A DNA stretch of 64,000 nucleotides, taken from the IMG/VR virus record IMGVR_UViG_3300029305_006500, one strand, 5' to 3'. A program made the position numbers and the translations under genes. The stretch comes from a virus (taxonomy: Duplodnaviria > Caudoviricetes). Below are positions 361-16,759 of this stretch, piece by piece. Within the stretch, counting starts at the first letter, position 1. Every line of letters begins with the position of its first letter. The notes beneath the pieces are model-generated. The model saw nothing but the letters and a program-made list of their open reading frames with translations, was not told the origin of the DNA and made no database searches.

Positions 361-503
361 GAGCCAATGCTTATTTCTTAATGCCTGTTAAGCCGTGGGT
401 CGTAGGTTCGAGTCCTACCTTTCCGATGGAGGCACTGCCTGAATAAGGCCAATACTCGCGGATTGTAGCTCAGTGGTAGAGCAACGTATATATTAGCTTG
501 GCC
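361..503 (+). ncRNA. Y-RNA-like (YrlA-like) RNA unit 1 with circularly permuted tRNA domain
   Basis: Terminal stem GCCAA(T)GCT/AGCTTGGC encloses, in order, T arm GTAGG-TTCGAGT-CCTAC, acceptor 3' strand, a linker, acceptor 5' strand and D arm GCTC-AGTGGTA-GAGC. Confidence 0.7.
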
Positions 504-522
504 CTTAACTTTGAAAATTATA

Positions 523-638
523 GAACCAATGCTTATTTCTTTGATTCTTCCAGCTGGTGGTCACGGGTTCGAGCCCCGTCATTCCGCTTCGGGATGTAGC
601 TCAGATGGGAGAGCTCCAGCTTTCATTTAGCTTGGTCT
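523..638 (+). ncRNA. Y-RNA-like (YrlA-like) RNA unit 2 with circularly permuted tRNA domain
   Basis: Terminal stem ACCAA(T)GCT/AGCTTGGT; GCTGG/CCAGC anticodon-equivalent stem; T arm ACGGG-TTCGAGC-CCCGT; acceptor stem CATTCCG/CGGGATG closed by a 3-nt loop; D arm GCTC/GAGC. Confidence 0.75.
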
Positions 639-646
639 TAATAAAA

Positions 647-755
647 ATCCTGTTAGCTTAATGGCAAATCCTGGATGGTTTTACACATCAATTTAAGGGA
701 CAGAGCCCCTCCCTTCAAAGGAGGAGATTCGGTGTTCGACTCCCGAACAGGTACA
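647..755 (+). tRNA. Atypical tRNA-like gene with TCA (opal-reading) anticodon, D-loop insertion and degenerate acceptor end
   Basis: CCTCC-CTTCAAA-GGAGG anticodon arm; T loop TTCGACT; CCTGT/ACAGG acceptor pairing; about 35 extra nt in the D loop; no clean CCA. Confidence 0.5.
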
Positions 756-764
756 TTTTAATAT

Positions 765-1088
765 GCTCCAGTGGTGGAATTGGCAGACACCTGGGACTTT
801 AATCTGTTCTCCTTAGATGTAAGGACTACATTAATTTGTAGAGAGTGCCTAAGAGGAAACTCTTAGAGTAGAAGCTAGCTAAACGGTGAAAGCGAACAGA
901 AAATACCGTGCCAAAATCCTTAATTAGGATTGTGCGTAGAGGCTATACACTAGCTACCTAAGTGCGAAAGCATATGGTAAAGATTGAGTCCAGACTACAA
1001 CACAGTAATGTGGCTATGGTGACATAGAGTAGTACGAAAATCCCATGCCCTTCGGGGCGTACCGGTTCGAGTCCGGTCTGGAGCACCA
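765..1088 (+). tRNA. trnL: tRNA-Leu(TAA) interrupted by a group I intron
   Basis: Exon 1 765-799 ends TGGGA-CTT; exon 2 1037-1088 starts AAAA-TCCCA; long variable arm, T arm, GCTCCAG/CTGGAGC acceptor, ACCA end. Confidence 0.9.
800..1036 (+). mobile_element. Group I intron (237 nt, no ORF) in the anticodon after U34
   Basis: Follows a T and ends in G; P (GCTAAACGGTGAA), Q (AATACCGTGCC), R (GTAGAGGCTATAC) and S (AAGATTGAGTCC) like elements are in the expected order. Confidence 0.85.
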
Positions 1089-1089
1089 A

Positions 1090-1962
1090 GCCATTGATGT
1101 AATTACTAAAGCTCTTGTGATTACGTAGGCTTACAGAGCAGACATTAGGAGAGACTTATGGCAGTTGGAAAGACAACCGACGGTTCCGGTGCGTAGTGGT
1201 TAGAAGCATCGACTTGGATATGATGGTAAGCCAATACAACAATAACCATTATGATTAGTGTAGATGCGAATATAGGCGGGGTATTGTTATCCGGAAGTCC
1301 TCGTTACCGGAATTGCGCGGGAGCTGCTTCTATGGCTGTAGGCCCCTTACACTAACAGATAGTTATGAAGAGAAGAACACTCCTTGTTAGCGGTGAAATG
1401 ATATATCTGCTAGCGGTGCGGATACCTATCCGACATAGCGTCTGCGTTAGCCCACCTAAGGTGCGTTAATCCTTAGTACTTATCGTGAGGGGCAATATTA
1501 CATTTCTGTGCGAATATTGATGATTTCGTTTATTTGGTAGTTCAAGGGGGACGATAACTACCCCTTTGGAGTGTGCGCAGCATTAATGAGTTACTAAGTA
1601 ATCGACATTGAAACTAATAAACTAAATAAAAACACCGAGGCGAGCCCTTAAGTTAATAGGGTGAATGACAAAGTCCTCCGATACCGCGGCTGAAAAAAGT
1701 GCCTTTAAGTCTGAAAAATAAAATCGTGCCGCAAGAGATTCCCAAGAAGCTTACAGCAACTGGTGAGCCCGAAAAGTCTATACTGTAAGATAGTACAAAG
1801 TAGGCGAGAATTGAGGATAGGATGAGGTGTGGCTACGCAGACCAACTTATATAAGTGACGGACAGGTAAATAGATCTGAAAAGTGAAATAACTGAGAAGC
1901 TTATACCCCTAGTGTCTAGGCGTAGAGTAAGTGTTCTTTGTTTAGTTTATTAGCAGAGATGT
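1090..1962 (+). ncRNA. Large structured ncRNA region, family unassigned (possibly ROOL-like)
   Basis: About 870 nt without an ORF of 60 aa or more; long-range helices 1440-1457/1825-1842 and 1614-1635/1931-1953; many local hairpins. Confidence 0.5.
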
Positions 1963-2108
1963 TTAAATTTTGGTTACATTATATAATGTATAAATAGACA
2001 GATAGTTTGCATCAAAGGTGGATAAGAAATCGCGCCACCAAAATACCACTAGGTTGAGGCGTTAAAAAGTAGATAAGATTCTTGCGCTACTAATTATTTG
2101 TCTCATAT

Positions 2109-2183
2109 CCGCGTATAGTCGCTTAATTGGAAAAGCGCTCTCCGGGTTCGGTTGAGAGATAAGGTTCGAGTCCTTCGACGTGG
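2109..2183 (+). pseudogene. Degenerate tRNA-like element
   Basis: CCGCGT/ACGTGG acceptor-like stem, CGCTT/AAGCG D arm, AAGG-TTCGAGT-CCTT T arm; 11-nt anticodon loop; no CCA. Confidence 0.45.
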
Positions 2184-2391
2184 TATTACGTAATATAGAA
2201 AATTTAAGTAAGGCCACAGGGCGAGGAAGTTTTGTGTGGCTATCGTTGACTGTGAAAAAACTAATCAGTGCCAGGGAGGCTCCGAACCCCTGTATTAATA
2301 CTGGTAGTGCTTTATTAATAAAAGGTGAAAACTGTCTGACTAACGTCTCACTAACGTGCAGAAAGATTGCTACTAGCCTTCGGTGTCCTAT

Positions 2392-2466
2392 AGGTCTCTG
2401 GTGTAACGGCTAGCATACGCGGCTCCAACCCGCTTGGTCAGAGTTCGAATCTTTGGGGGCCTGCCA
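2392..2466 (+). tRNA. trnW: tRNA-Trp(CCA)
   Basis: Cloverleaf, loop CTCCAAC, GCCA end. Confidence 0.9.
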
Positions 2467-14850: not shown

Positions 14851-15727
14851 ACGGGCCTGACCGATAACTTCCCGTAAGGGAATGAAAGGAGTATACTGAC
14901 AAGACTCCGCTGTGATGAGCAGTACCTCAGGCAATGTGTGACGGGACCTGTAAGAATTGAAAAGATTCTTACGAATATGCTAACCCCATGTTCTAACTTG
15001 TCAATGATGAAATGAATGAGATTAGTTGAGGGCCAACTGGTTGAACTAATTTCTGCTCTCGCAAGGAGCTGGTTTCAATGCAAAAGGATTTGATGAGGTA
15101 AGGTAAGCTACAGGAAGTAAAATAGTTCAAGTTTTAGCAAGCAAGGGCGACTTCCATTTATATCTGCTATGGTGGATATAAGAAATACAAGTACGAAGCC
15201 AAGGAAAGTATTGAAGGCGGGTAGCATTCTTGCACTCAAAAGGTGTGAGAACTACAACAATAGTCTGTCTTCCGTCAAATCTCAACTTAGCGTGGGTTCG
15301 AGCCCCACCCGGCGTGCCAATTTTATCTTATAGAGATAATTAGCACTTATCTCTTGCATACGCCGGTAGCTCAGTAGGCAGAGCGGTTGTCATAGGAAAA
15401 CAATGTCATGAGTAAAAACCTATTGTTGGAAACAAAGAAAAGTGTCTTAAGCCCAGAGTGGTAAGCAATCTGGGATATTAGGTGTCACAAGCATCTAGTA
15501 TTTGATTGAAACGAATCTATAGAGGCGTAGCAACCTCGAACAGCCCGCAAGGTTGATAGTGGAGTGATAATCGAGTAATTGTTTCTGTAAAGGCGAAAGC
15601 AAGCCTGGAGCCCTTGTGCTGGGGTGACGAATTGCAGGCATGAGCGGTACTTCCCAAAAGGAAGTGGAAAAGTGACTAAAAAATAAGGTCATTAAGCCGT
15701 AGCAATCATAAGATGTATTCTCAGTCT
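14851..15727 (+). ncRNA. GOLLD-like giant ncRNA (about 880 nt)
   Basis: Starts just after a TGTATAAT box inside a phage tRNA cluster; CTCAAAAG/CCCAAAAG-loop hairpins, CTCGCAAGG/CCCGCAAGG hairpins and a 3' GTATTCTCAG end resemble GOLLD sequences as I recall them (not searched). Confidence 0.6.
15283..15389 (+). ncRNA. Circularly permuted tRNA module inside the GOLLD-like RNA
   Basis: CAAC...T arm GTGGG-TTCGAGC-CCCAC-CCGGCGT-GCCA (ends 15319), 40-nt spacer, then ACGCCGG-TA-GCTC...GAGC-G-GTTG. Confidence 0.75.
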
Positions 15728-15810
15728 TTTAATCTTCTTACCATATATACTAATTGTCTGAAAGGATGCTGTTAAGACAGGGATATAGCCCCTGTCAATT
15801 AGTATTTTAT

Positions 15811-15886
15811 GCTCCATTCTTCTAGTTGGCCAGGAAGTAAGATTCTCAATCTTAAAACAGGTGTTCGAACCACCTATGGAGTACCA
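15811..15886 (+). tRNA. trnE: tRNA-Glu(CTC)
   Basis: Loop TTCTCAA, ACCA end. Confidence 0.85.
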
Positions 15887-15895
15887 TTTATATTT

Positions 15896-15970
15896 GCGCG
15901 GTTAGTTTAATGGACAGAACGCGTGGCTACGGACCATGAGATATGGGTTCGATTCCTATACTGCGTGCCA
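15896..15970 (+). tRNA. trnR: tRNA-Arg(ACG)
   Basis: Loop CTACGGA, GCCA end. Confidence 0.9.
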
Positions 15971-15973
15971 CAT

Positions 15974-16049
15974 ACACTTTTAGCTCAGCTGGAAGAGCGG
16001 CCCTCTCCTAAAGGGCAGGTCGTTGGTTCAAGTCCAATAAGGTGTGCCA
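15974..16049 (+). tRNA. trnR: tRNA-Arg(CCT)
   Basis: Loop CTCCTAA, GCCA end. Confidence 0.9.
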
Positions 16050-16053
16050 ATAT

Positions 16054-16130
16054 GCGTCCTTAGCTCAGCGTATAGTAGCAACGGTTTTCTAAACCGTAGG
16101 TCCTAGGTTAGAATCCTAGAGGGCGTGCCA
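16054..16130 (+). tRNA. trnR: tRNA-Arg(TCT)
   Basis: ACGGT-TTTCTAA-ACCGT arm, GCCA end. Confidence 0.85.
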
Positions 16131-16233
16131 AAGATGCTGGCGTTTTAGGTAAAAAGTGTGAATGCTAGGAACTTTGGGTGTATAGTTTTCTAACCCTCCG
16201 AGTCAGCATCTTATTCTTTTTAAGGAGTTTATT

Positions 16234-16446
16234 ATGAAAGTTTATGAAGTAGAATTTCATTATGGAAGAAATACTTATGAATTTCTGTCAGACCTTGATC
16301 TTGAAGTAGGTAAAACTTATAGACTTACTAATGATTTAGGACATACATATAAAAGTAGAGCGATTATTTTAGATAAAAAAGATGTTTCCGTATTCTCTGG
16401 TACAATGCGAGAAATTGTAGATGCTGATGAGGAAATGCCATGGTAA
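16234..16446 (+). CDS. Hypothetical protein (70 aa)
   Basis: AAGGAG RBS. Confidence 0.7.
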   Translation: MKVYEVEFHYGRNTYEFLSDLDLEVGKTYRLTNDLGHTYKSRAIILDKKDVSVFSGTMREIVDADEEMPW

Positions 16447-16484
16447 GTGATTAAAATATAAAAAATATATTGTATAATAAAATA

Positions 16485-16759
16485 GAGCCAATACTTATTT
16501 CTTAGATATTTTGGGTATATATTTTAAAAGTTTGGCCAAATATTATGCTAAATAAAATAGAGCTTGTGCTTATTTCGTACATATTATAGAAAATTTTAAA
16601 AAGGGTATAGCCAAGCCAAATTATTTAAACGTAGAGCTTATGCTTATTTCTTAATGCAGGTGCCGACATGTCGGCAGAAAAATCAGCTAAGCCTTATATA
16701 GAGTCTATGCTTATTTCTTTTGACTTAAATTATATAATAGATAGTGTGATAGCTAGACC
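16485..16759 (+). repeat. Tandem array of four minimal Y-RNA-like stem units (16485-16537, 16560-16617, 16634-16693, 16701-16759)
   Basis: Each unit is GAG-N4-T-RCT-TATTTC...AGY-N4'-CC with compensatory stem changes; TGTATAAT promoter at 16471. Confidence 0.75.

Follow-up and report, generated by a model that had tools for sequence, protein, structure and literature searches.

The question raised by this locus is what a set of six short, related units encodes, and with which protein the products would work. The units lie in a 64,000-nucleotide (nt) stretch of DNA from a virus of the class Caudoviricetes (IMG/VR record IMGVR_UViG_3300029305_006500), referred to here, at its full length, as the window. 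An original prediction had read them as a phage ribonucleoprotein system in which a Y-RNA-like stem serves as one conserved, protein-binding handle for interchangeable cargo, and it had proposed a wider alignment, a comparison with the YrlA and Y RNA models of Rfam and a record of neighbouring genes as means of checking this. We find that all six encode small non-coding RNAs, which belong to one covarying family absent from Rfam 15, and that RNAs with this handle are genomically coupled, both in Clostridia and in large phages of the gut and rumen, to one family of proteins of ~660-690 amino acids (aa). On the strength of sequence and gene order, the likely partner of the RNAs is this protein, a helical domain joined to a TerD fold, and not a recognisable Ro60. 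We consider it probable, by analogy, that the two form a particle of the Ro60/Y-RNA type, built with a different handle and a different protein, which would act on tRNA damage.

A search of the window with GARNNNNTRCTTATTTC, tolerating at most one mismatch, returned six copies, all exact and all on the plus strand, at 361, 523, 16485, 16560, 16634 and 16701, where shuffled versions of the window held a mean of 0.67 copies and none of 100 reached six. Between 44 and 134 nt downstream of each of the six there follows AGY, the exact reverse complement of the N4 segment, and YC, so that both the positions given in the original prediction and all of the covariations it listed (CCAA/TTGG, CTTG/CAAG, CTTA/TAAG and TCTA/TAGA, together with GCT/AGC versus ACT/AGT) are borne out, as are the bulged U and the invariant UAUUUC in the handle of every one of the six. 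A motif-like match at 12144 lies within a coding stretch, has no 3' partner and was taken as chance. The handle itself consists of a G-C pair, a bulged A, five base pairs, a bulged U and three base pairs (R-C-U/A-G-Y), after which comes the single-stranded UAUUUC; RNAalifold, with no structure supplied, recovers the same helix, and adds the pairing of G1 with an invariant 3' C, with A2 as the second bulge.

Units 1 (361..503, +) and 2 (523..637, +) are the longer ones, and enclose permuted tRNA bodies. In the former, the 5' strand of the handle runs over 361-371 (G361, bulged A362, 363-367, bulged T368 and 369-371), UAUUUC over 372-377 and the 3' strand over 495-503; the corresponding segments of the latter are 523-533, 534-539 and 629-637. 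The remaining four are short forms on the plus strand, and all are scored well by a covariance model (R1) that we built from short units: unit 3 (16485..16539; 55.4 bits, E 6e-11), which has an interior hairpin with a UUGGG-type loop that recurs in orthologous copies; unit 4 (16560..16619; 57.8 bits), with an AT-rich interior; unit 5 (16634..16695; 44.4 bits), with the GC hairpin UGCCGAC-AU-GUCGGCA; and unit 6 (16701..16761; 56.3 bits), again AT-rich. As such, the interiors are those that had been described, namely two permuted tRNA domains, one GC hairpin and three AT-rich loops. The same model gives unit 2 only 21 bits and misses unit 1, and it is therefore not a detector for the whole family.

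The most direct evidence that the handle is maintained as paired RNA comes from motifs chosen without regard to pairing. All 5' motifs without a mismatch were taken from the window and five related phage contigs (35 in all, with eleven different N4 sequences); of these, 34 had a perfect Watson-Crick 8-mer partner within 260 nt and the remaining one had a partner with a single mismatch, the chance of finding a given 8-mer in a stretch of that size being about 0.4%. In a wider alignment of 28 short units, which were preselected for pairing and for which the 34 of 35 is accordingly the unbiased figure, 100% of cells pair and six of the eight pairs have changed on both sides, while controls with the strands slid against one another were 8-59% paired; the compensatory changes that such an alignment had been expected to reveal are thus present. 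IMG/VR was also scanned with one form of the 5' motif and the matches were then checked for the 3' partner, which yielded 48 distinct units with a perfect 8-base-pair helix in about a dozen contigs of ~60-230 kb. Across these the invariant positions are G1, A2, C10, U11, the UAUUUC and the 3' A-G and C; U8 is kept in 47 of the 48, and G1 is mostly preceded by U (36/47) and A (44/47), in that order. The cargo ranges from AT loops of 20 nt up to full tRNA bodies, and the handle is unchanged throughout. One contig (L042) and some 45 other lone pattern matches in viral contigs were without a proper partner and were taken as chance. In a named phage collection no close relative of the window was found, the matches being at the level of tRNAs.

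These observations bear on the simplest deflationary account, in which the units are DNA repeats without a role as RNA, for instance sites used in recombination or homing, or mobile elements of miniature size. Homing endonuclease genes do lie within the tRNA island, and both the copy number and the spacing of the units vary between close relatives, which speaks for this account. The compensatory changes, however, preserve pairing, the interiors hold tRNA-like folds, promoter boxes stand at a fixed distance, and the copies, which are clustered, fall almost entirely on one strand (12/0, 1/11, 0/7, 6/0 and 6/1, at up to one mismatch). We therefore regard repeats at the level of DNA as extremely improbable.

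A promoter had been predicted ahead of each cluster, and a TATAAT box preceded by TG is indeed found before unit 1 and before unit 3. The first (345..352, with TATAAT at 347-352; +) matched at 10 of 12 positions in a promoter scan and ends 8 nt before unit 1, and both the box and its spacing recur ahead of the first units in relatives; the second (16473..16478, +), with TG directly before it, ends 6 nt before unit 3. In the wider set a TAnAAT box lies 4-14 nt upstream of 13 of 47 units, and the other 34 have no -10 box. Directly 3' of unit 6, ARAGORN places tRNA-Met(CAU) and tRNA-Thr(UGU) (16772..16923, +), which are probably co-transcribed with it, and the same order is kept in a relative (G002), where units at L149:12447-12700 are followed by tRNA-Met at 12706 and tRNA-Thr at 12789. 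The tRNA clusters of other phages also encode stable RNAs of unclear function, among them species 1 and 2 of T4 and a tRNA-like RNA of T5, and the handle RNAs resemble these in being small RNAs set with phage tRNAs, some of them tRNA-like; we know of no sequence or handle that they share. The distance between units 1 and 2 also differs between relatives: it is 162 nt in the window and 792 nt in the near-identical G001, where an open reading frame of 211 aa with a PemK/MazF endoribonuclease domain (L154:4108-4743; E 1.2e-7), absent from the window at ~505-523, stands between them.

The window opens within a protein-coding gene. Positions 2..210 (+) hold the 3' end, comprising the last 69 codons and the stop, of a gene for a protein of ~660 aa, which was located by tblastn with P0001, the corresponding protein of a relative of 93-100% identity (L154:1579-3564); residues 593-661 of the query align with window positions 2-208 at 93% identity. 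A seventh copy of the handle lies just outside the window, upstream of this gene that ends at 208, as seen in G001 (L154:1453-1510). In every phage lineage examined, over protein identities of 41-100%, handle units flank the gene on the same strand, with 1-5 units within ~20-160 nt upstream and 1-3 downstream, and the flanking is retained in a relative (G003) whose gene, together with two units, is ~90 kb away from the tRNA island. In the record of genes around phage handle copies, the constant neighbour is thus the gene for this ~660-aa helical and TerD protein. The description of the units as bracketing the tRNA island calls for amendment: they are better described as flanking the partner gene, with the second cluster probably forming a transcription unit with tRNA-Met and tRNA-Thr.

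The coupling extends well beyond phages. For homologues at 25-39% identity, all nine contexts that included DNA show related RNAs on the strand of the gene, at 50-440 nt upstream of it, and a profile scan of genomes with an alignment of the subfamily returned 262 relatives, mostly from rumen and gut Clostridia and a few of them from isolates, with carriers among the Lachnospiraceae, Eubacterium, Oscillospiraceae and Christensenellaceae. Isolates with the bacterial form include Lachnospiraceae bacterium C6A11, AC2029 and AC2031 and Eubacterium ruminantium FB3002. The bacterial RNAs have a sister form of the handle that reads outer helix, AGCUA, N5, RCU, UAYUUY ... AGY, N5', RAUWY, outer helix, and in which the bulged U of the phage handle faces a G. 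Its strict core motif was found upstream of the gene at 45 of 72 loci versus 5-6 of 72 in three controls, and a relaxed motif just upstream at 62 of 67 Clostridia loci versus 2-3 of 67; the helix is fully paired in 62 of 70 copies, with many different N5 sequences and wide covariation. A T arm, or the permuted tRNA core in full, is present in many of these copies, and one copy reaches 44.7 bits on the YrlA model over its positions 23-85 only, and no Rfam family was found at gathering thresholds in 12 relative loci. The notion of a phage system consequently holds for the large gut and rumen phages, but the system is not confined to them, as the protein with its sister handle is also present in Clostridia. 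At one bacterial locus (L165) each copy is preceded by -35 and -10 boxes of its own, and a terminator-like hairpin closes the first copy ahead of the promoter of the second, which argues that the bacterial copies are free-standing RNA genes. At another locus (L160; ena:ERZ27316224:k141_221351), a homologue with two upstream handle RNAs adjoins genes for TraG/TrwB-type coupling proteins of type IV secretion, which suggests that the RNA-protein pair also rides on conjugative elements.

In many loci the last copy stands 50-130 nt before the start codon, and in L164 the motif, for which no clear 3' partner was seen by eye, is 53 nt before the start. Such positions would suit an operator within the mRNA for the TerD-domain protein, through which this protein would regulate its own synthesis, with the other copies as by-products. 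Against a cis-acting leader of this kind, four copies in the window are 16 kb distant from the gene and grouped with two tRNAs behind a promoter of their own; copies are also present 3' of the gene; the first L165 copy has its terminator-like hairpin ahead of the second promoter; and tRNA-like cargo would be pointless in a simple operator. We regard an explanation by cis regulation as quite unlikely. The comparative data fit instead the proposal of one constant handle with interchangeable cargo, in that the handle is invariant, the interiors differ and the handle co-occurs with one protein family, much as Y RNAs accompany rsr. No description of this RNA-protein pair was found in the literature that we searched, the coverage of which was incomplete.

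The cargo of units 1 and 2 is a circularly permuted tRNA body with the order T arm, loop-closed acceptor, D arm. Unit 1 (+) has in addition an anticodon-type arm, in which, as read from the sequence, 383-384 and 484-486 pair with 392-396 around the loop CUGUUAA (385-391); its T arm lies at 402-418, an acceptor region with an extra hairpin at 419-464 and the D arm at 468-482. This unit and its orthologues share a complete anticodon stem of five base pairs with a 7-nt CU-NNN-AA loop, the stem being interrupted in its 5' strand where the handle comes in. In unit 2 (+) the path leads from the handle through an internal loop to an anticodon-type stem (strands 553-557 and 616-620, five base pairs), then through a variable loop to the T arm (563-579), the acceptor hairpin (580-596, seven base pairs closed by CUU) and the D arm (599-614). 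The triplets displayed by unit 1 and its orthologues are GUU (the window and L031), GCU (the near-identical L008), UUU (L104 and L001), UGU (L120) and UCU (L009), which correspond to Asn, Ser, Lys, Thr and Arg, respectively, and every loop is of the form CU-NNU-AA.

ARAGORN reported no tRNA within either unit, the tmRNA_permuted model of Rfam gave no match there, and neither shows the normal, free-ended order of a tRNA. In unit 2 the acceptor is closed by a 3-nt loop and has no CCA, and the absence of a CCA or of a spacer between the acceptor strands argues against maturation into a working tRNA, whether of the Cyanidioschyzon type or as in two-piece tmRNA. A tRNA match over 459-587 (37.7 bits) combines a 5' half from unit 1 with a 3' half from unit 2, and was set aside as a by-product of similar acceptors, since the acceptor of each unit is closed within that unit. 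A tRNA-Arg of normal order (UCU and CCU by ARAGORN; L120:1535-1647 and L152:4549-4680, both on the minus strand) is enclosed by the handle in two relatives, so that tRNA bodies both permuted and unpermuted occur within one type of handle.

A permuted tRNA core is also a hallmark of the bacterial YrlA RNAs, and it is reasonable to ask whether the units are ordinary YrlA or Y RNAs that work with a Ro60/Rsr of the host or the phage. The defining features of YrlA are a neighbouring rsr gene, a GNCGAA(N)G motif on the 5' side, which is implicated in Rsr recognition, and a tRNA-like T/D domain (Chen et al. 2014, PMC4201824), and a terminal bulged stem also belongs to the Y-RNA plan (PMC4201824). The comparison with Rfam gave a partial result: the YrlA model (RF02553) matches unit 1 over 394-489 at 32.3 bits (model positions 23-88) and unit 2 over 555-618 at 34.8 bits (model positions 23-85), half of its cut-off of 69 bits. 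Over a model length of 114, these sub-threshold matches are limited to the tRNA-like core and do not reach the Rsr-binding stem. Across window positions 1-17500, at E<=1, Rfam 15 gave nothing for units 3-6, which lack the permuted T arm, loop-closed acceptor and D arm domain, so that no Rfam 15 family covers the units. The GNCGAA(N0-1)G motif was found in none of the 48 units in the first 30 nt of each, and no TROVE domain (PF05731) was found in G001, G002 or G003, which are 95-100% complete, in a search that did match control genomes. The handle RNAs thus fail every YrlA-specific test apart from the tRNA-like core, and the handle tracks a different protein. That they are ordinary YrlA or Y RNAs is, in our estimation, very unlikely.

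The likeness to the YrlA system, of which the Salmonella rsr-yrlBA-rtcBA operon and mycobacteriophage Ro are examples (Chen et al. 2014, PMC4201824; Hughes et al. 2020, PMC7790460), is nevertheless one of organisation. Both here and with YrlA, YrlB and Yrn1, several small RNAs stand beside one large protein gene, and a terminal bulged stem is combined with a variable module; some handle RNAs hold a permuted tRNA look-alike that the YrlA model recognises, and RtcB is a recurrent neighbour. The handle RNAs differ in having G-A-R-N4-U-RCU-UAUUUC in place of GNCGAA(N)G, in that some of the phage members carry a complete anticodon-type arm and many only a short AT-rich loop, and in the neighbouring protein, which has no detectable TROVE sequence and has a TerD fold where Ro60 has a vWA domain.

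The protein belongs to a family of 555 close clusters, or 929 representatives at E<1e-3. P0001 had no Pfam, PHROG or PDB match by sequence, with nothing in Pfam, TROVE and TerD included, even at E<=1; for a second member, P0002, the sole Pfam signal was a weak UBA-like one (E 0.06). An AlphaFold2 model from an alignment of 110 sequences was of high confidence (pLDDT 95.6, pTM 0.94), and in it residues ~426-595 form a TerD beta-sandwich, the VIA comparison giving 2qz7_B (Z 13.2, root-mean-square deviation (rmsd) 2.3, 146 residues aligned) and 2kxt (Z 10.7), and Foldseek four TerD-type entries at E 5e-5 to 5e-4 (5e-5 for 2kxt), of which three are titled TerD and one, 2qng, is of unknown function. 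A GD.T.G-type motif, as read from the alignment, is kept in this domain, which has a likely Ca2+ site. In these respects the protein is like the TerD proteins of Ter systems (2kxt, 2qz7, 3ibz), and it differs from them in its fusion to a helical domain of 425 aa, in having no Ter operon neighbours and in escaping the Pfam TerD model. We know of no RNA association described for TerD. The N-terminal helical domain had no convincing fold match by Foldseek or VIA, and no nuclease fold is present in the model. Ro60 chains are the only solved ones to align over 230-310 residues of the model, as 1yvp_A (Z 5.7, rmsd 5.6, 310 aligned), 2nvo_A (Z 5.6, rmsd 6.0, 283) and 9l5y_B (Z 4.7, rmsd 7.1, 297) with the whole model, and as 9l5y_B (Z 6.0, rmsd 6.7, 230) and 1yvp_A (Z 5.1, rmsd 5.7, 240) with the N-terminal domain alone. 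The protein is similar in size to Ro60 (1yvp, 2nvo, 9l5y; the Ro60 of phage phiLo, PMC12135203) and, like it, begins with a helical part and has a compact domain towards the C terminus, though this domain is a TerD beta-sandwich and not a vWA domain. Ro60 is at most a putative relative of this protein.

The main rival to an RNA-protein particle is a leader-trailer processing stem. On this account the paired ends would be a site at which an endonuclease, either RNase III-like and of the host or a factor of the phage, excises tRNA-like and small RNAs from long transcripts of the tRNA island; the handle would be removed and not kept, and the neighbouring protein would be a processing factor or unrelated. 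That most units lie within arrays and lack a promoter of their own, as judged by the 34 of 47 without a -10 box, speaks for such a role, as does the adjacency of units to tRNAs, including the two cases in which the handle surrounds a normal-order tRNA-Arg. Yet an invariant single-stranded UAUUUC and two fixed bulges exceed what a simple double-strand cleavage site needs, and the short units hold no cargo that would be worth excising. The bacterial copies, moreover, are free-standing, with their own promoter and a terminator-like hairpin, and sit beside the protein gene without tRNAs, and the protein model lacks a nuclease fold. We consider the processing stem unlikely as an explanation of the family.

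The preferred reading is that of a particle with the organisation known from Ro60/Rsr and Y RNAs, in which the TerD protein would bind the handle, this serving as the protein's address. Units beside a -10 box would start at the handle, and those within arrays would be cut from tRNA-containing transcripts. The cargo of the tRNA look-alikes, units 1 and 2 above all, may then present a tRNA-shaped surface by which tRNA-acting enzymes are recruited, distracted or reported on. During infection by the phage, such a particle would most likely help to control damage to tRNA, together with Pnk, RNA ligase or RtcB, and could shield the phage's large set of tRNAs from tRNA-cleaving defences of the host. 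We infer the binding of the protein, and the role in dealing with damaged or attacked tRNA, from the Ro/Y-like organisation, the tRNA-shaped cargo and the neighbouring genes for RNA repair.

As to the last, an RtcB gene lies between handle units in G003, and RtcB is found within 2.5 kb on the same strand at 7 of 89 bacterial or metagenomic loci, which we estimate to be far above chance for a single-copy gene. A Pnk-like P-loop kinase (AAA_33/KTI12) stands directly upstream in G001 and G002, and a fusion of kinase (Pnk), phosphatase and Rnl1 ~2.3 kb downstream in G003. This neighbourhood mirrors the Salmonella operon order rsr-yrlBA-rtcBA (PMC4201824, PMC7790460). At L161:1439-2599 the RtcB just upstream of the TerD-domain gene was called as two open reading frames (118 and 165 aa) with a gap of 300 nt, for which an inserted element, a frameshift or a misassembly could be the cause.

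A more specific version of the particle would make it a decoy or sensor of tRNA damage, in which the anticodon arms that are attacked most would be held by the protein as uncharged copies with a capped acceptor. These copies might soak up anticodon nucleases of the host or, once cut, recruit RtcB or the Pnk-ligase pair to the phage's tRNA pool. The PARIS nuclease AriB cleaves tRNAs Lys UUU, Thr UGU and Asn GUU in E. coli (PMC12409363), and three of the five displayed triplets coincide with this target set, a coincidence that we treat as a lead only. We hold the decoy or sensor to be a tentative idea and, on balance, a doubtful one.

Several observations weigh against the particle as we picture it. 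The Z values of 4.7-6.0 and rmsd of 5.6-7.1 against Ro60 are within the noise stated for helical repeats, Foldseek lists no Ro60 for the model, and the partner protein has no Pfam TROVE match. Comparison by hhalign of the family alignment with Bxz1 Ro, and with a TROVE alignment of 22 sequences, gave a probability of 0.1%, the latter alignment being low in diversity and a weaker test than a full profile. The link to RNA repair rests on the neighbourhood of the genes in a minority of loci. Those handles that enclose tRNA-Arg would be separated into their two strands by RNase P and RNase Z, which fits a leader-trailer stem at least as well, and the triplet of unit 1 differs in its middle base (GUU vs GCU) between near-identical phages, which argues against a tightly fixed function of the cargo.

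To our knowledge, Ro60 with its Y RNA is the only well-studied bacterial particle that pairs a tRNA-mimicking RNA with a surveillance protein, and its function is debated. Were the handle RNAs and the TerD protein a second such system, a protein handle with tRNA-shaped cargo would appear to be a recurrent solution, a likely role could be assigned to an unannotated protein family of more than 900 representative clusters, and the TerD fold would gain a setting in RNA biology. Phages carry an expanded set of 6-12 copies of the family amid large tRNA arsenals and RNA-repair genes, so that its role in the contest over tRNA between phages and host defences is directly testable there. The handle RNAs also account for several "orphan" intergenic blocks in the genomes of huge gut and rumen phages.

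Other features of the tRNA island in the window deserve mention. A GOLLD RNA is found at 15212-15727 (+; 155.3 bits, cut-off 150), and its variable region holds a further permuted tRNA-like segment, to which the YrlA model gives a partial match (15284-15388, 27.5 bits). Directly before tRNA-Pro is a match to drum RNA (8744-8856, +), which at 42.2 bits is just below the cut-off of 43. By eye, 765-1087 (+) looks like an interrupted tRNA, with a 5' part (~765) and a T arm and acceptor with CCA (~1050-1087) some 250 nt apart; neither ARAGORN nor Rfam called a tRNA in this segment, and no Rfam intron family matched it at E<=1. A GIY-YIG/NUMOD homing endonuclease gene (4570-5211, +) also lies within the island, and genes for a DUF5662 protein (9259-9888, +; E 6e-37) and a papain-family cysteine protease (10220-11119, +; E 2e-16) stand among its tRNAs.

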